A stretch of DNA of 64,000 bases from Promethearchaeota archaeon. Lineage in GTDB: Archaea; Asgardarchaeota; Lokiarchaeia; Sigyniarchaeales; SOKP01. A model generated the notes under the pieces. The model was given only the letters and a program-made list of their open reading frames with translations, ran no database searches and was not told the DNA's origin. A program made the position numbers and the translations under genes. This document shows, one piece after another, positions 43,798-60,309 of this stretch (position 1 is the first letter of the stretch; the number at the start of each line of letters is the position of its first letter). Location of the stretch: contig JBHLOY010000006.1 of assembly GCA_048939995.1 (NCBI GenBank), forward strand, positions 64,001-128,000. The letters run 5' to 3'.

Positions 43798-45240
43798 TTA
43801 ATTTTGAGAATTTAAATCTTTTTTAGATTTTAATTTATAACTTCTAAGTTCCCTTAAAATGACATAATCACCTTTTTTCACAATAATTTGACTATTTTCA
43901 AGTCCCACAATTACTGCTCCTTTAGTTCCAAATGGACTAATTATTTTAGTGAAAGGCTTCTCTAATCTACGACCGACGATCTTTTTGGCACCAGTTAAAC
44001 TTTGGGCTAAGCCAGTACAAATTATACCTTGAGAGTGCGATGGATTTTGTATAATTCCCTTTTTTACTTTATATCTATAGATTATAGGTGATTCCTTGAA
44101 TGTTTTAATCAATTTAGCTGAGCCTAGTACCCTTAAAGTAGTTGGAGGTAGATCTAAGCGGCTTAATAATATTGTAGCTTTTTCCTTCCTAAATAGAATG
44201 TTCTCATTGAAACATAGAAAAGCTTTGAAAGTTATAAAATCATTAGTTGCATTCATTTGAATCTTTTTTCCATTAGATTCAATAAAAGGATAAATATAAC
44301 CTGTTGATGTGAACATTCCTATAGTGATATGTACTTGTGTGCCAAAATGAGTTTCTGCTTTAAATATTTTATTTTTTTTCACCTCAACTTCAATTATATC
44401 AGAATATTCAAACGCATCCTTATTGTCAGTTGCATAACAACCTCTAAAGACATTTTTAGCATCTATGCCTTTAATATTAATACCTACTCTATCACCAGCT
44501 TTCGCATTGTTAACTGTTTGATGAAATATTTGAATTGATTTTACTTTACCAGAGAACCCCACAGGCATTATGTATATTGTTTGATTTAAACCTATTTTGC
44601 CTTGTAAAATCGTGCCAGTTATTATTGTTCCTCTTCCTTTTATAGAAAAATGATGATCAATCGGAATTATTATGTCTCCTTCAAATTCCCTTTGTATCTT
44701 TAAACCTTTTACTTTATCTAAAATCCCTTCTTTTAATTCCCGAAATCCTATTACCTTTTTCGCAGATACAGCGAAGATAGGCACTTTGGATCCAAAACTG
44801 GTTGATTGAAAAAAGGCTCTGGTTTTCTTAATTTCGTGATTTATATCACCATTAAATATATCTGTTTTATTTAATACGACTATAACGTCCTTAATATTTA
44901 ATGATTCTATCATAATAATATGTTCACCGGTTTGAATTTGTGGACCTTTATTGATATCAATTACAATTATTGCACAATCAATTATTTCTACTGAAGAAGC
45001 ACTTATTCTGATTAAGTCTGCATGACCAGGACCATCAACTAAGGTAATAATATACTTATCTAACACAAAACTTGTAAATCCTAAATCAATAGTTATACCT
45101 CTTTCCTTACTTTGTGGATGCGCATCAATACCTGCAGTTGAGATAATTTCACTAAGAACTGCAGCTAAAGCTGTCTTACCACTATCTATATGCCCGTATA
45201 ACCCAATATGAATGGGAATTAAGTTCTTAAAATCAATCAA
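43798..45240 (-). CDS. selB: Selenocysteine-specific elongation factor SelB/eEFSec
   Basis: GHIDSGKT, PQSKERGITIDLGFTSF, DGPGHADLI, NKTD, DHHFSIKGRGT and C-terminal FGTKG; near tRNA-Sec and SepSecS. Confidence 0.9.
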   Translation of the reverse strand: MIDFKNLIPIHIGLYGHIDSGKTALAAVLSEIISTAGIDAHPQSKERGITIDLGFTSFVLDKYIITLVDGPGHADLIRISASSVEIIDCAIIVIDINKGPQIQTGEHIIMIESLNIKDVIVVLNKTDIFNGDINHEIKKTRAFFQSTSFGSKVPIFAVSAKKVIGFRELKEGILDKVKGLKIQREFEGDIIIPIDHHFSIKGRGTIITGTILQGKIGLNQTIYIMPVGFSGKVKSIQIFHQTVNNAKAGDRVGINIKGIDAKNVFRGCYATDNKDAFEYSDIIEVEVKKNKIFKAETHFGTQVHITIGMFTSTGYIYPFIESNGKKIQMNATNDFITFKAFLCFNENILFRKEKATILLSRLDLPPTTLRVLGSAKLIKTFKESPIIYRYKVKKGIIQNPSHSQGIICTGLAQSLTGAKKIVGRRLEKPFTKIISPFGTKGAVIVGLENSQIIVKKGDYVILRELRSYKLKSKKDLNSQN

Positions 45241-45392
45241 GAGTATAATTGTAACTTTCTTTTTATCCTAAAAGAGGAAATTAAAAAATTCTCAATTATT
45301 TTTCTAAATATTGGACTCCAATAAAATTTAATTAAAAGGATTTTAATTTTATTATAATATCTATAATATATTAAAAAAGAAAGTTGTGGAAA

Positions 45393-46259
45393 ATGCCCCG
45401 TTATTGTGTCTATTGTGGTAATCCATTGAAACCTACTGATAAATATTGCATTATATGCGGTAAACCTGTTTTGAGTGATGTTCAGAAACCCAAGGCAAAA
45501 GAAGTTCAAAAACCTAAAGATGTTATAAAAGAAAAAGTAAAAGAACTCCGAGGAAATCAAAAATCGCTTGAGATCGAAATTGAAGAGGAACCGAAAGAAG
45601 TTGAAATCAAAAAAGAAAAGAAGAAAAAGGCTAAAGGTGAAGGAATAGTAGAAAAACCTTTGCCATTTGATGTTAAAGAGCAGATGATCCTTTATATTGA
45701 GTATGAGGATATACAGTTGAATAAAAAATTACTTGCAGAAAAATTAAAAGAGATCCAAAAATCTTTGAACGACCCTCGTTATGATGTAGAGGAGGAATTT
45801 AAGAAATCAATTAATGTTAAAATTGATGCAATAAAAACTCTCATCAATGAACTTAAACGAAAAGAGACTGAAGTCAAAGAAAAAATGGAACAACCATTTA
45901 TAGTTCAAAGGATTAAAGATGATATTGATAAAAGAGTTTTTCAATTAAAAAATTTAACTCAAGAATTCAAATTACGGAAAATAGATAAAGAAACTTTTGA
46001 ACAATTAAAAGAGAAATACAAAGAAGAGAGAGCAGACTTTGAGGAAGAACGGGAGGATCTAATTGCTGGTATGAAATTATGGATCAAAGAATTAAAAATG
46101 GAAAAGTCTGAAATAAGGGCTGAAAGAAATCTCAATAAGGGGAGATTTTCTTCAAAAGAAATTAGTGAAGAAGATTATAAAGAAAAAGATAAAGCATTTG
46201 ATATAAAACTAAAAAAAATTGATGTGAAGATTAATACATTAGAAAAACTTGTAGAATAA
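45393..46259 (+). CDS. Zinc-ribbon plus coiled-coil protein
   Basis: N-terminal CVYCG..CIICG followed by a long charged helical region. Confidence 0.7.
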   Translation: MPRYCVYCGNPLKPTDKYCIICGKPVLSDVQKPKAKEVQKPKDVIKEKVKELRGNQKSLEIEIEEEPKEVEIKKEKKKKAKGEGIVEKPLPFDVKEQMILYIEYEDIQLNKKLLAEKLKEIQKSLNDPRYDVEEEFKKSINVKIDAIKTLINELKRKETEVKEKMEQPFIVQRIKDDIDKRVFQLKNLTQEFKLRKIDKETFEQLKEKYKEERADFEEEREDLIAGMKLWIKELKMEKSEIRAERNLNKGRFSSKEISEEDYKEKDKAFDIKLKKIDVKINTLEKLVE

Positions 46260-46300
46260 CTAAATTTTATATTAATTCTAACATAATTATTATCGATCTT

Positions 46301-46426
46301 ATGAGGAAAATTTTAATTGGTTTTGTAATATTTTTGGTAGCTTTATCATTTCTAACGATCGGAATTATTGAAGCTCAATATTCATTAATTAGTACATTTT
46401 ATGAAGAAATGATTCTCATACCTTAA
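46301..46426 (+). CDS. Small single-pass membrane protein (41 aa, not in the ORF track)
   Basis: MRKILIGFVIFLVALSFLTIGIIEAQYSLISTFYEEMILIP* fills the intergenic gap. Confidence 0.55.
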   Translation: MRKILIGFVIFLVALSFLTIGIIEAQYSLISTFYEEMILIP

Positions 46427-46438
46427 CCTTAATAAACT

Positions 46439-46741
46439 TTAATCATATCTCTTTATTTTTCCCGAAGAAATAGAATCTTCTAAAAATCCTTTTTTTTGGT
46501 ATAACTTCTCTTGAGATCTCCGGAATTTATTTACATCCTTATAATGTTCTTTACAGAGAAAGATTTTTTTTTGTTTATTCTCTTTGTACTTCAGATCCGC
46601 TTTTTCTAAATACGATTTCCATTTACTTTCTGAGAGAGATCTTGTAGCTAACTCACTACAACCTATAACAGAACATCTTTTTCCTTTGTTTGTGGTACTA
46701 GTTAAATCTCTTTTTTCTCTGAGTTCTTTTGGGAGTTTCAA
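46439..46741 (-). CDS. Small archaeal Zn-finger-like hypothetical protein
   Basis: CSVIGC...RSLS...LCKEHYK; GGAGA SD before the TTG start. Confidence 0.65.
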   Translation of the reverse strand: MKLPKELREKRDLTSTTNKGKRCSVIGCSELATRSLSESKWKSYLEKADLKYKENKQKKIFLCKEHYKDVNKFRRSQEKLYQKKGFLEDSISSGKIKRYD

Positions 46742-46826
46742 TTTTAAACATCTCCAAAAAAATTTTATTAGGATTGAATATTATGTTTTTTAATTAACTA
46801 ACATCTTAAAATCTTTTCAAAAACTA

Positions 46827-47558
46827 ATGGATAATTTAAATTTAATTTTCAATGAGACTCTTGTAAGAAAGAAAATTTCTGATTGTGATTCTCCTTTAAG
46901 GATTTCTCTAAAAGATACTTTTTTTACAAGTTCCGCTGTTATATTTTCTATAATTCAATATGACAATAAACCTTTTGAATTAATTCTAATACATCGTACT
47001 GAAAGAGGTTCAAGGCATCGAGGAGAAATATCTTTTCCAGGGGGCAAATTTGAACCCGATAAAGATAAAAACCTGAGAGATACAGCCCTAAGGGAAACAG
47101 AAGAGGAAATAGGAGTTCCAAGAGATAAAATAAAAATTATTGGTTGTCTTGACGATTTTCCGACAATGACAAAGTATATAATAACACCTTTTATTGCAAT
47201 TATTGACAAAAATCAGAAATTGGTAAAAGATGATCGCGAAGTTCAGAGTATCTTGAAAATTCCTATTGATTTCTTTATTCTAAAAAAAAATTTTAAAGAA
47301 CAAGCAATTAGCATTGAAAATAAAAAGTTTCCTATTTTTTATTTTAATTATTTCGATCCTACAAGTAAAAAAAATTATACAATTTGGGGGGCTACAGCCT
47401 ATATGATATCAAATTTTATTGAAAAAATATATGATTACAATATGTCAGAATTAGGATTAAATCGATTTAAACTTGAAAAAATTAAGCAATTAAAAGAATA
47501 TATTAAATATAGGAATCAAATTGTTAACAAGTTTAAAGTTACAAATGATAGGAGTTAA
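46827..47558 (+). CDS. CoA pyrophosphatase-type Nudix hydrolase
   Basis: HRGEISFPGGK, TALRETEEEIG and IWGATA motifs. Confidence 0.9.
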   Translation: MDNLNLIFNETLVRKKISDCDSPLRISLKDTFFTSSAVIFSIIQYDNKPFELILIHRTERGSRHRGEISFPGGKFEPDKDKNLRDTALRETEEEIGVPRDKIKIIGCLDDFPTMTKYIITPFIAIIDKNQKLVKDDREVQSILKIPIDFFILKKNFKEQAISIENKKFPIFYFNYFDPTSKKNYTIWGATAYMISNFIEKIYDYNMSELGLNRFKLEKIKQLKEYIKYRNQIVNKFKVTNDRS

Positions 47559-47561
47559 CCA

Positions 47562-48242
47562 GTGAACTATAACGATTTCAGATTTCATGGGGATTTGGTT
47601 AGAAGCAAATTAAAAGATTTTAACTCACCGAAAAGACTTAAAATGCAACAAACACCATTTGTCAATTCAGCTGTATTGCTTTTAATTCAACCAATTGAAG
47701 AGAAACCATATAATATTGTTATGATACGCCGTACAAAAAGAATGAACGATAAGCATTCAGGTGAAATGTCTTTTCCCGGAGGAAAATTCGATGCTAATTC
47801 TGATCACACCTTATTAGATACTGCTCTAAGGGAAGTTAATGAAGAAATAGGAATCTCTCGACAGAATATAATTATCTTAGGGTGCATAGATGATCATCTT
47901 ACTCCTAAAGGATATATTATAACCCCTTTTGTTGGATATGTGGTCAAAGAACTTGACTTTGTTAAACAAAAAGAAGAAGTTAATGAGATTGTAAAAATTC
48001 CAATCAATTTCTTCGCAAATAAGAATAATTATAAGGAAAAAACTTATAATATAAAGGGAGATCAAATTGCCGTCGGTAAATTTAAATATAGGGCACCGAA
48101 TGGCAGATTGTATGTTATTTTTGGTGCAACATCTCATATTATTGTTAACTATATAGATAGCGTATATAATGTAGGTTTGATGACCCCTGGAAGTAGAAGA
48201 ATAAAATGCAACGATATAGTAGATAAAATAATTAGGAATTAG
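47562..48242 (+). CDS. CoA pyrophosphatase-type Nudix hydrolase (tandem paralog)
   Basis: HSGEMSFPGGK, TALREVNEEIG and IFGATS motifs. Confidence 0.9.
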   Translation: MNYNDFRFHGDLVRSKLKDFNSPKRLKMQQTPFVNSAVLLLIQPIEEKPYNIVMIRRTKRMNDKHSGEMSFPGGKFDANSDHTLLDTALREVNEEIGISRQNIIILGCIDDHLTPKGYIITPFVGYVVKELDFVKQKEEVNEIVKIPINFFANKNNYKEKTYNIKGDQIAVGKFKYRAPNGRLYVIFGATSHIIVNYIDSVYNVGLMTPGSRRIKCNDIVDKIIRN

Positions 48243-48256
48243 AATTAAGAAATCTA

Positions 48257-49291
48257 TTAATAACTTATTCGAGGATCTAACATGCCATATATCACATCTG
48301 TAACTAGATTAATAAGAACATAAGAAATTGTGATAAAAAATACTATCCCATTTAATACCCAATAATCACTAAGTGCAATTGATGCTGTTAATAAATCTCC
48401 TACGCCAATAAAATTGAAAGTGACTTCTGTAAGAACTGCACCAGTAAAAAGACCACCAAGATTTAATCCTACTACAGCTACTGTAGGTATTAACGCATTT
48501 TTCCGGGCATGAGTATATAACACGTTTTTTTCATCACAACCCTTAACTCTGGCAGTTCGTATATAATCTTCTTCTAGAATCTCCAACATACTTGAGCGAG
48601 TTTGTCTGGTAATATTTCCCAGCATATGGAAGGTTAAAACCAATACAGGTAAAATTAAATGATATAAATAATCTGAGATTATATAAAATTCCCCTGAAAT
48701 TAAAGCATCAATTATTCTAAAGCCAGTAACACGAGCAGGATCGGAATAACTATAATTCTTATACCCAGTTATAGGGAAAAGTTTTAAAATATAACCAAAA
48801 ACATATTGAAATATCAATCCTAAGAAAAATACTGGAATTGAAACTCCTAATAAGGAGAAACCTCTTACAAAGGTATCCTTTGCTTTATTTCTATGTTTTG
48901 CTGATATTATTCCTGTTTTAATTCCAAGTGGTATTGCTATAAGCATCGAAAAAACTGCTAAATCTACAGTTCGAGGAATTCTTTGACCTATTAAATCCCA
49001 TACAGGTACTCCTCGTACAACTGAAATAGAATATCCCCAATTGCCTGTAAATAAGTCTTTTAGGTATATAGCATACTGTTCCAATATCGGTTTATCAAGT
49101 CCAAGTAACCTAAGGGCTCGTTCATAATCCTCTGGAGAAATACCTCGTTCTAACTGCCCGAGATTAGCAACATATCCTAAAACAGGATCACCAGGCATAA
49201 GCCTCGATAGTATAAAAGTTAATGTTAAAGTCCCGAACAAAATTGGAATCAAAAATATTAATCTACGAGCTATATATCTAACTAAACTCAT
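48257..49291 (-). CDS. Orphan DppB/OppB-type ABC permease
   Basis: Close paralog of 5547..6566 (SAKHRNKAKD, DYIRTARVKG, LDPRISY). Confidence 0.9.
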   Translation of the reverse strand: MSLVRYIARRLIFLIPILFGTLTLTFILSRLMPGDPVLGYVANLGQLERGISPEDYERALRLLGLDKPILEQYAIYLKDLFTGNWGYSISVVRGVPVWDLIGQRIPRTVDLAVFSMLIAIPLGIKTGIISAKHRNKAKDTFVRGFSLLGVSIPVFFLGLIFQYVFGYILKLFPITGYKNYSYSDPARVTGFRIIDALISGEFYIISDYLYHLILPVLVLTFHMLGNITRQTRSSMLEILEEDYIRTARVKGCDEKNVLYTHARKNALIPTVAVVGLNLGGLFTGAVLTEVTFNFIGVGDLLTASIALSDYWVLNGIVFFITISYVLINLVTDVIYGMLDPRISY

Positions 49292-49443
49292 TCAATTTTG
49301 GCTGAAATATAAATTTTTATAATTATAACTCAAAGAAGTAAACTTAAAAATTTAATCATTGAATTGATATGATATATATGTGAAATTGATTTTAAAAGAA
49401 TAGATTTTCTGTATTAAACAATAAACCATAAACCATAAATTTC

Positions 49444-49452
49444 TTTTAAAAC
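49444..49452 (+). promoter_or_regulatory. Putative TATA box for tRNA-Sec
   Basis: TTTTAAAA lies about 24-31 nt upstream of the tRNA-Sec 5' end. The AT-rich background lowers specificity. Confidence 0.4.
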
Positions 49453-49474
49453 CATCTACTTAATTATTTAAAGT

Positions 49475-49631
49475 GGCCCTAGACGGTCGGAATTGTTTTG
49501 AGATCATATCGATCTCCAACGATAAGTGGTCTCTGACACTGGGCTTCAAACCCAGTTATCCTGCGAAGGGATAGGAGTTCGATAACGGTTGGAAATTTAC
49601 TAATCTTCGAATATCTCCTCGAGGGCCGCCA
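49475..49631 (+). tRNA. selC: tRNA-Sec(TCA) with two introns (49492-49525 in D-stem, 49584-49613 in T-loop)
   Basis: 9-bp acceptor GGCCCTAGA/TCGAGGGCC followed by GCCA; 6-bp anticodon stem ACTGGG-CTTCAAA-CCCAGT; long variable arm; 4-bp T stem GGAG/CTCC. After splicing, a 7-bp D-stem with TGGT loop forms. Confidence 0.92.
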
Positions 49632-49664
49632 TTATATCATATTTATAAATATATTGTGTTTTCC

Positions 49665-51032
49665 ATGGTTGATTTTAACAATATTATTGATTTATTCGAA
49701 GACTCAAATATTCCTAAAAACATGTTGAATAGGGGGCAACTTGTTTTAAACGAGTTTTTGAATCCAATAAAAATCCTATTTGAACAAAGATCCATTCCTA
49801 AAGAACCTTGGACCGAAGAACAAATAGAATTCTTTCTTCAAACTCTTTCAAATATGGATACAGATAAAGATAAGAATGCAGCTAGAGTTGGTGAAAGAGA
49901 GGCAAGAATAGCTTCAAAACTTCATTTAAAAACATCAGCAGGATTTTGCCATGGTGTGGGGAGAAGTGGCTTTTTAACAGCTGCTCAACCAAAAGCACCT
50001 GGAGGCTCAATCATGTATGAGCTTTCCAACTATTTGGCTCGGAATATCTTGAAAAAATCTGGATTATCAAATGTTTCAGATGCAATTGTAGTTCCAATGT
50101 GTACCGGAATGTCATTAGCTTTAACTTTAGGGGCTTTAAGGCCAGATGGGGGTGAAGAAGATTCGGATCTCAAAAGAACTGTATTAGTTCCTCAAGTTGA
50201 TCATAAATCGCTATTAAAATCGATTGACTTAATGGGTCTTAAGGCAAAAATTATTACAGGTAAAATTTTTGGAGACGCTGTAAGAATTCCTGTTGAAGAT
50301 ATAAAATCTAATTCGGATGAAGACTGTTTTGCTGTTATTTCAATAACCAGTTTTTTTCCACCTCGCGAACCAGATAACATAAAGGAAATTAGTAAATTTG
50401 CTAAGGAAAATGATCTTGTACATATTATCATTAATGCATATGGTGTTCAAAGCCCTGAATGGATGAAACTAATCCGATCAGCAATTGATGCTGGTAGAGT
50501 CGATGCAATAATTCAATCGACAGATAAAAATTTCCTGACTCCTGTTGGTGGGGCTCTGATTGCATCACCAATTAAGGATATCATTACTAAAATTAGTCAA
50601 TCTTATGCTGGACGTGCCTCCGCTACTCCGATAGTAAATTTCTTAATTTCAATGCTTTCATTAGGAATTAGTGGTTACCAGAAATTAATTGAAGAACAGC
50701 AACAAAATCGAAAAACTCTTGAAATAAAACTTAAAGAAGTTGCAGAAAAATTTGATGAAAGGATTCTTGATATTTATAATCCAGTAGCTGTTGCATTATC
50801 TTTAAGAAATTTAAAAAAAGATCAGTTATACGCTCTCGGAGGAGCTTTATATAATCTAAGAGTTACAGGCCCTAGAGTATATAACCCTGAAGAAAGTACC
50901 TTTGGAACTTGCTGTTCAAACTATACAACCCCTTATATTGTAATGAATGCTGCAATTGGGACAACTTCAAGCGATATCACTCTCGCTGTTGAAAGGTTTG
51001 AAAAAGCTTATGATCAAATTATTCAGAAGTAA
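49665..51032 (+). CDS. spcS: O-phosphoseryl-tRNA(Sec) selenium transferase SepSecS
   Basis: VGEREARI, HGVGRSG...QPKAPG, PMCTGMS, NAYGVQ, QSTDKNF..PVGG and YAGRAS motifs. ATG 49665, or GTG 49656. Confidence 0.95.
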   Translation: MVDFNNIIDLFEDSNIPKNMLNRGQLVLNEFLNPIKILFEQRSIPKEPWTEEQIEFFLQTLSNMDTDKDKNAARVGEREARIASKLHLKTSAGFCHGVGRSGFLTAAQPKAPGGSIMYELSNYLARNILKKSGLSNVSDAIVVPMCTGMSLALTLGALRPDGGEEDSDLKRTVLVPQVDHKSLLKSIDLMGLKAKIITGKIFGDAVRIPVEDIKSNSDEDCFAVISITSFFPPREPDNIKEISKFAKENDLVHIIINAYGVQSPEWMKLIRSAIDAGRVDAIIQSTDKNFLTPVGGALIASPIKDIITKISQSYAGRASATPIVNFLISMLSLGISGYQKLIEEQQQNRKTLEIKLKEVAEKFDERILDIYNPVAVALSLRNLKKDQLYALGGALYNLRVTGPRVYNPEESTFGTCCSNYTTPYIVMNAAIGTTSSDITLAVERFEKAYDQIIQK

Positions 51033-51128
51033 AATCAGTCAAATTATTTAATTCTTCTACCCAATTAATAAAAATAAATAAAAATAAATAGAACTATATA
51101 ATAATAAATACTATTAGGTTATCTAAAT

Positions 51129-51809
51129 ATGGAGAATCGACTTTTAAACCAATTTAATAATGTAATTTCTTCTCAATGGCTATCCAAAAATATTCAAATA
51201 CCGTATGAACCATTAAAATCAAAAGAATTATTCGAATTAGCATATCATTGTTGCAATTCAATAACAATGAGAAATATTTTTATTAAATTAGCTCCCAGTG
51301 AGGATAAAGGAGGATTTCAAGCAATTTTTTATTCTAGTAGTAAAAAATTCATAAATATCGTAGCATTGGATAATGAAATAAAATTAACAAAATTCTTTCC
51401 CGAGGGTTCTACTGGAGATAAGATTATAACAGAAATTCAGCCTCTTTTAAATAAAAGAAAAGACCAATATATAAAAAAGGATAAAGATATTCAAACTCAA
51501 ATACTTAAAATGATCCTAGTGGAACGCAAATTAGATGAATGTGCAAATTTAGTAATGTTAAAAGAGATAAATAGAAAAGTTTATTTCTCTATTGGGGATG
51601 CTAGAGAGAGTGCTGCTGTAATACCAATATTTATGGAAGCTGATGGAGCAAGTCTAGTACAACTAGCGCTAAACAAATGGATGACTATAGTCCAAAATCT
51701 GGACCAAGAGAAATTTTTTCCTGATAATCTTGTTGCAGGATTACTTAAAAATCTTATGCAGATAAAAAAATGGATATTAAATTTAATCTCAACAAATTTA
51801 GATAAATAG
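51129..51809 (+). CDS. Hypothetical protein
   Basis: 226-aa ORF downstream of SepSecS; no recognised motif. Confidence 0.6.
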   Translation: MENRLLNQFNNVISSQWLSKNIQIPYEPLKSKELFELAYHCCNSITMRNIFIKLAPSEDKGGFQAIFYSSSKKFINIVALDNEIKLTKFFPEGSTGDKIITEIQPLLNKRKDQYIKKDKDIQTQILKMILVERKLDECANLVMLKEINRKVYFSIGDARESAAVIPIFMEADGASLVQLALNKWMTIVQNLDQEKFFPDNLVAGLLKNLMQIKKWILNLISTNLDK

Positions 51810-51832
51810 TGTTATTTTTCAATTTAAAAAAA

Positions 51833-52011
51833 TGGGCCATCGGGGATTTGAACCCCGGATTTCCCTTACTCATTGATGGAATCACAATGAGACTCAGGTT
51901 TTTACTAATAACGGACAAATTATTTTGTTGTATGTCCGTTGGTCATTTATAAGACCTGCGCTTTTTGACCAAGCTTTAAAGAGCTTGTTAACCAGTCTGA
52001 GCTAATGGCCC
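51833..52011 (-). tRNA. tRNA-Ile(TAT) with three introns (51964-51988, 51900-51946, approx. 51861-51892)
   Basis: Acceptor GGGCCAT/ATGGCCC plus A73; T arm CGGGG-TTCAAAT-CCCCG; anticodon stem CAGGT/ACCTG with loop CT-TAT-AA after removal of the hairpin inserts. Confidence 0.82.
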
Positions 52012-52190
52012 AAGACAATGATAATTCTATCTAAAGTATTTCTCCATATTTAAAAAAATATTTTTCTTACAAATTCAAAAGTTTCAAAAACATAAAAATT
52101 TTTTTATTGTTGCACTCTGTTATATTTATAATTAAAGCTTTAAAATGAATTTATTTAGAATTTAATTATATATATAAGAGTGAGAAGATT

Positions 52191-52592
52191 ATGGCTGAAA
52201 TGCTTACAGATTTATTAAATTCGATTTATAAAAGAATAGCCCAATTAGGTCAAGCCATTCAAGCTCTAAATACATCCTTAGATGGACTAAATAAAAATAT
52301 CGAAGAAAAAATTACCAATTTAAATGAAAAGCTAAAATCATTTGAAGAAGAAATAGATATCACTCAAACAAAACACATTGAAGTTTTAAGAGAAATTGGT
52401 GAAAGCACAAAATCAGAATTAATAAGCATTAAAGAGGGATTGGGTTTAGATGCTTTAAACACTTTAATAAAAAAGCTTGACGAATTTCAAAAACTATCTG
52501 GGGAGGTTTTAAATCAAGACACAGTGAATTTATTACTTTCTGAGGCTATAAATTCCGTGAAAAATTTAAAACAATCCTCTACAAAATTATAA
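52191..52592 (+). CDS. Hypothetical coiled-coil protein
   Basis: Heptad-rich, all-helical sequence. Confidence 0.65.
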   Translation: MAEMLTDLLNSIYKRIAQLGQAIQALNTSLDGLNKNIEEKITNLNEKLKSFEEEIDITQTKHIEVLREIGESTKSELISIKEGLGLDALNTLIKKLDEFQKLSGEVLNQDTVNLLLSEAINSVKNLKQSSTKL

Positions 52593-52604
52593 AATGGTGA
52601 TATT

Positions 52605-53024
52605 ATGGCAGAAAATTTATTAAATGAGATGATCAATAAGATCAATCAAATAACTTCTTCGTTAGATGGCACTATTGCTCAGATTAATCAAATGAGTACA
52701 TCAATTCAAGCCATGTCTCAGAAGTTTTCTGAAGAAACTATTTCTGTTAATGAAAATATCCGTCTTATAGTAGAAGTACTTAAACAATTTAGAATGAAAT
52801 CTAGTGAGAGTATTCAGGAAATTGCTGATGATTTTAATGCAAAGGTTAAAGAATTATATGAAAAGAAATCATTAGAAACTATTACTGAAGAAGAAAGAAA
52901 AGCGATAGAAATAATTAGACAAGTGGCTAAAACAGTTTCTAACAACCTTTATTACGCGCAACTTTTAAATATTATTCAATCAATTAGAGAAGAAACTAAT
53001 AGAATAATGAGTTGCAAGGAATAG
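52605..53024 (+). CDS. Hypothetical coiled-coil protein
   Basis: Heptad-rich; GGTGA SD; N-terminus resembles its neighbour (MAE.L...IN/Y.I.Q). Confidence 0.65.
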   Translation: MAENLLNEMINKINQITSSLDGTIAQINQMSTSIQAMSQKFSEETISVNENIRLIVEVLKQFRMKSSESIQEIADDFNAKVKELYEKKSLETITEEERKAIEIIRQVAKTVSNNLYYAQLLNIIQSIREETNRIMSCKE

Positions 53025-53086
53025 TAAACTCTTTAAATTTAGATGATTATTATATTTTATTATTATTTTATGGAGACTAGATAACA

Positions 53087-53989
53087 ATGCCAATCGGCAG
53101 TTTTGTAATATTATTACCGTTAGAAGCAGATTATAAAATATTAGGATATTATTTTAAAGAAGGTAAGTCAAGTTTTGAAGTGTCGAATGATCTTTTTCTA
53201 AGATTGAATTTGGATCATGGGAAAAATGAATACAATCTTTTAAAAATAAAAGATTTTCAAATTTTTTCCTATCTCTATAAATTCAAAGGAAAATTATCTA
53301 GAAAAGCTTCAGGTACAATAATAGGTTTGTTACTGAATGAGAATGATAAACCTGAGAAATTTCGTTCTTCGCTTAAATTGGGAGCAGAAGCAATTGAAAT
53401 TATTGGATTAAATTTATTAAATTTATCGAAAGCTGAATTTAGACCTATTTTAAAAGATATTTATTATGAGCATTTAGAACCATTTATTGATATATTAAAA
53501 CCAGAAGCTTTGAAATCAAGTATTATATCTATTACGAAATTCATGTTAAGTGGAGGAAAGAATGAAAGAAAAATTGCTCAAGACCTTCTAAAAAAAGTAG
53601 AAGATGGTGAACATGAAAAAATCTCTGAACATTATAATATTGCTGAAGAAGCACTAAAATCGTTAGATTACGAAAAAGCTGCAAAATTTTATAAAAAAGC
53701 TGCTGACATAGCTGAATCGTTATATGTAATAGATATCGCAGAATCCTTGAATGAAAAGGCAAATTTTTCAGAAAAAGTCCCAGAGATATCTAAACAGAGA
53801 GATAAATTAGTACAAGAGGCTAGAAATTCCTTAAAAAATGATGACTTTCATTCAGCTTATTTATCATATAAAAAAGCAAGTGAATTATCAAAAAAACTTG
53901 TAGAATTTGAAAAGGAAGAAGAGTACAGACTAAAATCTAAAGCATTAGAGGAATTCTACAAAGTAGACGAAAAATATAGAAATAAATAA
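53087..53989 (+). CDS. Hypothetical protein: putative longin-like N-domain plus TPR-like helical repeats
   Basis: Beta-rich N-terminus ending IIGLLLNENDKP; repeats YEKAAKFYKKAADIA and FHSAYLSYKKASELS. Confidence 0.5.
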   Translation: MPIGSFVILLPLEADYKILGYYFKEGKSSFEVSNDLFLRLNLDHGKNEYNLLKIKDFQIFSYLYKFKGKLSRKASGTIIGLLLNENDKPEKFRSSLKLGAEAIEIIGLNLLNLSKAEFRPILKDIYYEHLEPFIDILKPEALKSSIISITKFMLSGGKNERKIAQDLLKKVEDGEHEKISEHYNIAEEALKSLDYEKAAKFYKKAADIAESLYVIDIAESLNEKANFSEKVPEISKQRDKLVQEARNSLKNDDFHSAYLSYKKASELSKKLVEFEKEEEYRLKSKALEEFYKVDEKYRNK

Positions 53990-60207: not shown

Positions 60208-60309
60208 GCAGACATAGCCTAGCCTGGTACGGCGCCAGCTTGGAGAGAATTTCTTACCTAATAAGCTGGTGTGTGAAAGCACTCGAGGGTTCAAATCCCT
60301 CTGTCTGCG
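60208..60309 (+). tRNA. tRNA-Ser(GGA) with 18-nt intron at 37/38 (60246-60263)
   Basis: Acceptor GCAGACA/TGTCTGC plus G73; anticodon stem CCAGC/GCTGG; BHB with TTGG/CTAA helix and AGA and TAA bulges; long variable arm GTGT-GAAA-GCAC; T arm GAGGG-TTCAAAT-CCCTC. Confidence 0.93.

Follow-up and report, generated by a model that had tools for sequence, protein, structure and literature searches.

The window, a stretch of 64,000 nucleotides from a Promethearchaeota archaeon, carries on its minus strand (52011-51833) a tRNA-Ile(UAU) gene whose four exons are separated by three introns (Table 1). Removal of the introns leaves a product of 75 nt, which ARAGORN calls tRNA-Ile(tat) with a 7-bp acceptor stem. 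The spliced tRNA folds as a cloverleaf with the UAU anticodon, A73 and C4-G69, the last two of which we take to be isoleucine identity elements. This is the structure that an earlier note, made from the sequence, had proposed, and its sequence, its coordinates, the anticodon TAT at 51951-51949, the inserts of 25, 47 and 32 nt, the 7-nt exon and the hairpins were all recovered. The note had also held that standard annotation would overlook the gene: indeed, the unspliced gene was found neither by ARAGORN run without introns nor by Rfam, and ARAGORN with introns allowed miscalled it Lys*. Position 34 (51951) is T, as the note had read it, and not C, with no difference in anticodon-covering contigs from four separate studies; a sequencing error at this base is ruled out by these contigs and by about 60 orthologues. 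Other anticodons produced by shifted splicing (the TAA, ATA and CAG calls) are also ruled out, since the orthologues fix exon 2 and the junctions.

The host genome measures 3.75 Mb and is 98% complete. Directly behind the tRNA-Ile gene lies a selenocysteine cluster (window 43798-51809). On the upstream side, an A/T-rich element (52086-52131) is met again upstream of many orthologues, as well as in other contigs, and is perhaps the promoter of a divergent gene; the three divergent ORFs (133, 139 and 300 aa; 52191-53989, plus strand) gave no family match above the cut-off. A second intron-bearing tRNA gene of the window, tRNA-Ser(GGA) (60208-60309, plus strand), has an 18-nt 37/38 intron, is missed by ARAGORN without introns and served as a control. 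Elsewhere in the same genome (G000; contigs C11, C19, C37 and C38), many tRNAs carry T-loop inserts of about 30 nt.

Table 1 Features of the tRNA-Ile(UAU) locus and of the neighbouring selenocysteine cluster
Feature	Position in window	Strand	Basis or remark
Putative promoter, TATA-like TTTAAATA upstream	52047..52054	-	read from sequence only
Exon 1, tRNA positions 1-21	51989..52011	-	conserved in orthologues
Intron 1, D-loop 21/22, 25 nt; central helix UGGU/GUCA, inner helix CAAG/CUUG, outer pair open	51964..51988	-	relaxed motif
Exon 2, positions 22-38, anticodon UAU at 51951-51949	51947..51963	-	near-invariant in family
Positions 29-32 (GGUC) within exon 2	51956-51953	-	
Intron 2, anticodon loop 38/39, 47 nt; splicing helix UUAU/GUAA (partner 51905-51902)	51900..51946	-	boundary from variants
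GACC of intron 2, able to pair with exon 29-32 as helix P1S; candidate guide strand	51941..51944	-	pairing counts
Stem P1 of intron 2, arms 51940-51933 and 51917-51910, closing A/U-rich loop	51910..51940	-	compensatory pairs
Invariant ACA triplet, unpaired, at offset 13 nt from the G opposite C32; candidate box for the PUA domain of Cbf5	51929..51931	-	
Exon 3, positions 39-45, 7 nt	51893..51899	-	sequence and orthologues
Intron 3, variable loop 45/46, 32 nt; central helix 3 of 4 pairs	51861..51892	-	orthologues
Exon 4, positions 46-73, discriminator A73, no encoded CCA	51833..51860	-	
Run of seven T right after gene, putative archaeal terminator	51826..51832	-	sequence
Asgard selenocysteine-system gene	51129-51809		
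SepSecS	49656-51032		
tRNA-Sec-like RNA	49511-49597		
SelB-like gene	43798-45240	minus	

The splice motifs of introns 1, 2 and 3 form 4/4, 4/4 and 3/4 central-helix pairs, respectively. In introns 1 and 2 the inner helix is present and the outer pair is not closed (C-A and C-C), and both are relaxed HBh'/BHL motifs rather than strict hBHBh' ones; of the bulge-helix-bulge geometry that the earlier note had assigned to them, the 4-bp central helix and the inner helix stand, but the open outer pair departs from a strict motif. For intron 3 the note had described a relaxed motif with an uncertain boundary: the motif is as described, and the boundary is now fixed at 45/46, because intron-less orthologues read ACCTGAG-AT-CC. 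Some orthologues that possess intron 3 form a perfect CCUG/CAGG helix in this register. Intron 2 is placed at 38/39 because variants break both A-runs. The EndA endonuclease would cut all three introns at these relaxed motifs, and the two EndA paralogues encoded in the genome fit a heteromeric enzyme. Inspection of intron 2 ruled out a nested intron (no second bulge) and a box C/D reading (no intact C box).

AUA is a frequent codon in this organism: of every 1000 codons of its genome, AUA accounts for 34.5 and internal AUG for 18.2. A profile search for TiaS (PF08489), which the earlier note had suggested, found none in the genome itself (0/1) or in its family (0/68 genomes). TiaS is also missing from eight other Asgard families and from ten of the ten non-Asgard or unplaced genomes tested, and is kept in 171 of 301 Asgard genomes, so that UAU is not a eukaryotic signature and the label "eukaryote-type" used in the note was overstated. 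No TilS was detected above the cut-off in the genome, the sole PP-loop match being NcsA-like and below the TilS cut-off. A tRNA-Ile(GAU) gene is present, and the sole CAU gene among about 38 tRNA loci is elongator-Met-like, in an inventory that is incomplete (initiator Met, Asn, His, Trp and Tyr were also not recovered). By sequence and comparison, the locus almost certainly encodes the tRNA-Ile(UAU) with which a Promethearchaeia (Loki) lineage devoid of TiaS reads AUA.

Neither the anticodon nor the number of introns is new in itself. UAU in place of TiaS has been published for N. equitans, K. cryptofilum, ARMAN and 17 bacteria (PMC8450103, PMC3239211, PMC6000648), and in our searches UAU tRNA-Ile is common in Nanobdellota; the earlier note had called UAU the eukaryotic solution and rare in archaea. 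It had also placed triple-intron tRNAs mainly in Thermoproteales; in several Asgard classes tRNAs with more than one intron are the norm, and as many as five inserts have been published (PMC11291895; bioRxiv 10.64898/2026.10.13.758758). These Asgard genes resemble the present one in having several non-canonical introns with BHB-type boundaries that annotators miss; the preprint (bioRxiv 10.64898/2026.10.13.758758) makes no mention of UAU, Ile or TiaS. Because both are already published, the two headline points of the earlier note, UAU and multiple introns, are ordinary. The locus is a real three-intron gene of a known kind, and the novelty lies in a motif of its anticodon-loop intron.

BLAST matches to the gene were obtained in 63 of 81 family genomes, showing that the gene is not a chance occurrence, and a pattern search retrieved the anticodon arm in 59 of 68. 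The anticodon-loop intron is present in all 57 full family genes (57/57), retrieved with a pattern that could not return intron-less genes. The other introns (D-loop, variable-loop and T-loop) are labile across these 57 genes, with 1 to 4 introns per gene: intron 1 is missing in 10/57, a second D-loop intron occurs in 12/57 and the variable-loop intron in 12/57. This sets the gene apart from published Asgard multi-intron tRNAs: a single intron, bearing a conserved motif, is retained throughout, and the others come and go. Orthologues with four introns were observed (L012, L017, L024, L032, L044, L049, L135 and L136); four introns are ruled out as a record, since up to five are published and 6/57 family genes have four.

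Beyond the family, four other Asgard families without TiaS, as well as Nanobdellota and Korarchaeia-like genomes, yielded UAU genes interrupted at 37/38. As the family and Nanobdellota patterns excluded intron-less genes, the statement that an intron is always present was tested for f2, f18 and the Korarchaeia-like set only. An intron-less tRNA-Ile(UAU) gene lies at L461:12970-12988, on a contig with archaeal PCNA and archaeal GlmM, and thus not every archaeon needs the intron. Further intron-less, archaeal-looking genes were seen in L423, L425 and L466, and of the 81 metagenome matches, 57 are UAU tRNAs without an intron, the majority of them of bacterial or phage type. Pattern searches did not recover a UAU gene from the family's genus g4 (G040, G147) or from families f4, f5, f14 and f23, all TiaS-less and some complete, probably because further introns break the search patterns. 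No true UAU gene was found among TiaS-bearing genomes with patterns that are blind to genes with further introns. DPANN-type tRNA-Ile(UAU) genes also appeared in records titled "uncultured Methanosarcinales" (L172, L184, L185, L187, L193, L198, L200, L215, L225 and L228); the two of these genomes that were checked measure 1.0-1.3 Mb and are without TiaS, and the records are probably mislabelled.

Intron 2 has GACC at its 5' end, followed by a covarying stem (P1) and by ACA in its loop. At least three of the four P1S pairs between GACC and exon positions 29-32 can form in 61/61 family genes and in 46/50 others, against 2/18 control introns. The P1 arms show compensatory changes, with the pairs GGAC/GTCC (36), AGAC/GTCT (15), AGTC/GACT (3), GAAC/GTTC (2), GATC/GATC (2), AATC/GATT (1) and GGAC/GTCT (1). 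In all 61 family genes ACA follows the G facing C32 at a nearly constant offset, 13 nt in 52 and 14 nt in 9. On a tree of 57 genes the A, C and A underwent 0, 0 and 0 changes, as opposed to 15 at the position just before and 13-22 just after. Gene sets for the offset counts were gathered with patterns blind to the motif, and a motif-selected scan was not used for frequencies. ACA lies at offset 13 in 8/12, 0/1, 3/3 and 3/3 genes of the four other Asgard families, in 4/4 Korarchaeia-like genes and in 8/27 Nanobdellota genes (NCA in 15/27). Pooled outside the family, it is found at offset 13 in 26/50 genes and at any other offset in at most 3/50. Two complete genomes of family f2, of 4.4 and 6.0 Mb, bear the motif. 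It is lacking at offset 13 in 4/12 genes of the second family, in the single gene of a third and in 19/27 Nanobdellota genes, some introns being just 17 nt long. The motif occurs in none of 18 control 37/38 introns of other anticodons (0/18), a small set of controls with some related members. Exon positions 39-44 help to form the stem preceding ACA in Korarchaeia-like genes and in some DPANN ones, where the stem follows the exon changes. Taken together, these results leave little doubt that the conserved GRCC-stem-ACA element is real. It is apparently undescribed: the motif is not reported in the papers searched, a coverage without subscription titles.

From the motif, its spacing and its covariation, we infer an enzyme, a product and an effect on decoding. 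In H/ACA RNAs, a 3' guide strand base-pairs to the nucleotides lying 5' of the target U and stacks on P1, and Cbf5's PUA domain attaches to ACA (PMC2018633, PMC7991803), which it prefers to CCA (PMC2018633). P1S and P1 together hold 10-12 bp (PMC2018633), the archaeal target-to-ACA distance is 14-16 nt (PMC7991803) or 14 nt (PMC2651775), and Cbf5-Nop10-Gar1 modifies minimal substrates without a guide (PMC2018633). Before splicing of the pre-tRNA-Ile, GACC would pair with positions 29-32 and open U33-A38 as a loop, the resulting P1S helix would stack on P1, and ACA would lie 14 nt from the base opposite U33. The product would be the lower half of an H/ACA guide inside the pre-tRNA, circularly permuted and acting in cis. 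P1S and P1 amount to 4 + 8 = 12 bp here, compared with 10-12 bp in H/ACA particles, and the U34-to-ACA distance counted from the base opposite U33 is 14 or 15 nt, within the archaeal 14-16 nt; if the U33 partner is not counted, it is 13-14 nt and points at U33. With 4 + 8 pairs and 14 nt, U34 would thus be placed at the active site. The Psi36 register is ruled out, as the distance would be 17 nt and self-overlapping. Cbf5-Nop10-Gar1 would then dock on P1/ACA and convert U34 to pseudouridine, after which the precursor would switch to its near-isoenergetic splicing fold. Psi34 would keep Elp3-type modification off U34 and the tRNA off AUG. Such a hazard is documented in Haloferax, in which a U34 tRNA-Ile gets cnm5U and binds AUG (PMC3895270), and in yeast the intron gives Psi34, which prevents ncm5U34/Elp modification (PMC11408192).

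Cbf5, Nop10, Gar1 and Elp3 are all encoded in the genome. Cbf5 matches exceed the cut-off in 71 of 76 genomes, and its co-occurrence with the motif is uninformative because Cbf5 is near-universal. In G041, G058, G012, G023, G034, G331, G458, G466 and G345 the cbf5 match is in two pieces split near residue 70, resembling the intron-split cbf5 of Crenarchaeota (PMC2738675), and in G437 the break falls near residue 170, inside an 841-aa frame, and is possibly due to an intein. Inspection of 60 introns revealed neither a conserved 5' guide strand nor an upper stem or K-turn, and ACA is internal in the intron loop, not 3 nt from a 3' end as in H/ACA guides (PMC7991803). Being one-sided and devoid of upper stem, K-turn and free 3' end, the element may therefore work like an H/ACA guide without being a member of that family. 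A plain T-arm mimic is not an exact description either, since the tRNA T-arm maps to P2S, not P1S (PMC2018633). We favour, with moderate confidence, a cis, one-sided H/ACA-like element by which Cbf5 would make Psi34 before splicing. The earlier note's hint at intron-dependent pseudouridylation thereby gains support, but the route would be Cbf5/ACA and not the Pus1 of yeast.

The two folds of the precursor differ by 1.3 kcal/mol here (native body), with a median of 0.5 over 60 introns; the unconstrained full precursor favours the guide-like fold and the isolated arm the splicing fold. Such near-equal energies make a modify-then-splice switch plausible. They would also suit a motif that serves splicing or folding only, through a contact with EndA or as a switch ordering intron removal, with U34 unmodified as in Mycoplasma mobile and shielded from Elp3 in some other way. 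Unmodified U34 does read AUA safely in M. mobile and in a B. subtilis mutant (PMC3895270), and the intron-less archaeal gene also speaks for this explanation. However, other 37/38 introns are cut by the same enzyme without the motif (0/18), and it is the distance of ACA from the anticodon, and not from the splice sites, that stays constant between the 38/39 intron of this gene and the 37/38 introns found elsewhere, making a role confined to splicing or folding rather unlikely.

THUMP domains read a free 3' end, a property at odds with the internal ACA if the motif were a docking site for another 3'-end-reading enzyme (Pus10 via THUMP, or a different protein with a PUA domain) that modifies U34 or U33 while the precursor still contains the intron. 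The 13 nt from the G facing C32 to ACA would match tRNA positions 61-73 before CCA, with which we equate this spacing, and the NCA variants of Nanobdellota and the presence of Pus10 in four of four Asgard genomes tested are in line with such an enzyme. By contrast, the conserved triplet is ACA rather than CCA, and one motif-bearing Nanobdellota genome encodes Cbf5 and Nop10 with no Pus10 match. We regard docking of another enzyme as unlikely.

It is quite improbable that the intron acts in trans, as an excised circle or from another precursor, to guide modification of tRNA-Ile in an H/ACA-like manner. A circular intron would put P1 and ACA in the normal order, and the box C/D intron of pre-tRNA-Trp provides a precedent (PMC11408192), but the would-be 5' pocket strand has no conserved complement to positions 36-43, the guide would be only 4-5 bp long, and in some DPANN and Korarchaeia-like genes P1 cannot form without the 3' exon. 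That the motif is a functionless relic of an old intron, as the common ancestry of introns in related genomes and the partial loss in DPANN might suggest, is very improbable given an ACA unchanged beside positions with 13-22 changes, the compensatory stem changes and the recurrence across phyla.

Parts of the favoured Cbf5 mechanism have counterparts in known systems. The tRNA-Ile3(UAU) genes of N. equitans, Ca. Korarchaeum cryptofilum and ARMAN-2/-4/-5 share with this gene the UAU anticodon and the loss of TiaS (PMC8450103, PMC6000648, PMC3239211), and an intron beside the anticodon, as here, is reported for Korarchaeum and ARMAN-2. Unlike these, the present gene belongs to a Loki-type Asgard host, has its intron at 38/39 and contains two further introns; the accessible parts of those papers describe no intron motif or route of U34 modification. 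Archaeal H/ACA guides such as Sso1, which directs Psi35 in pre-tRNA-Tyr, likewise place a 3' guide strand on bases 5' of the target U, with P1 stacking and ACA at 14-15 nt (PMC2651775, PMC7991803), whereas the candidate element lies inside its own substrate, permuted and one-sided, with an internal ACA and neither upper stem nor K-turn. The euryarchaeal pre-tRNA-Trp box C/D intron also directs a position-34 modification of its own tRNA (PMC11408192), but by 2'-O-methylation through a C/D RNP in trans, and not by the proposed pseudouridylation by Cbf5 in cis. The closest parallel in substrate, proposed product and purpose is pre-tRNA-Ile(UAU) of yeast and of Cyanidioschyzon merolae, in which the intron is needed for Pus1 to form Psi34/Psi36 (PMC11408192, PMC9602550); the C. 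merolae gene likewise has three introns. Pus1 reads an anticodon-intron helix, whereas Cbf5 would read a looped anticodon and ACA, and we treat the relation as an analogy without claiming homology.

On balance we lean, if only modestly, towards an old shared intron in U34-reading archaea (Loki and other Asgard, Korarchaeia-like and many DPANN) that would be a self-targeting, permuted, one-sided H/ACA element for Cbf5, making Psi34 and solving the AUA/AUG problem without TiaS or Pus1. If this is true, the motif would be a concrete answer to how archaea with tRNA-Ile(UAU) avoid misreading AUG, and would give a reason for the retention of the anticodon-loop intron amid the gain and loss of its neighbours. 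It would also match the C/D guide of the tRNA-Trp intron with a counterpart for pseudouridylation, be an instance of H/ACA geometry at work in cis, and bear on the origin of eukaryotic intron-dependent Psi34.
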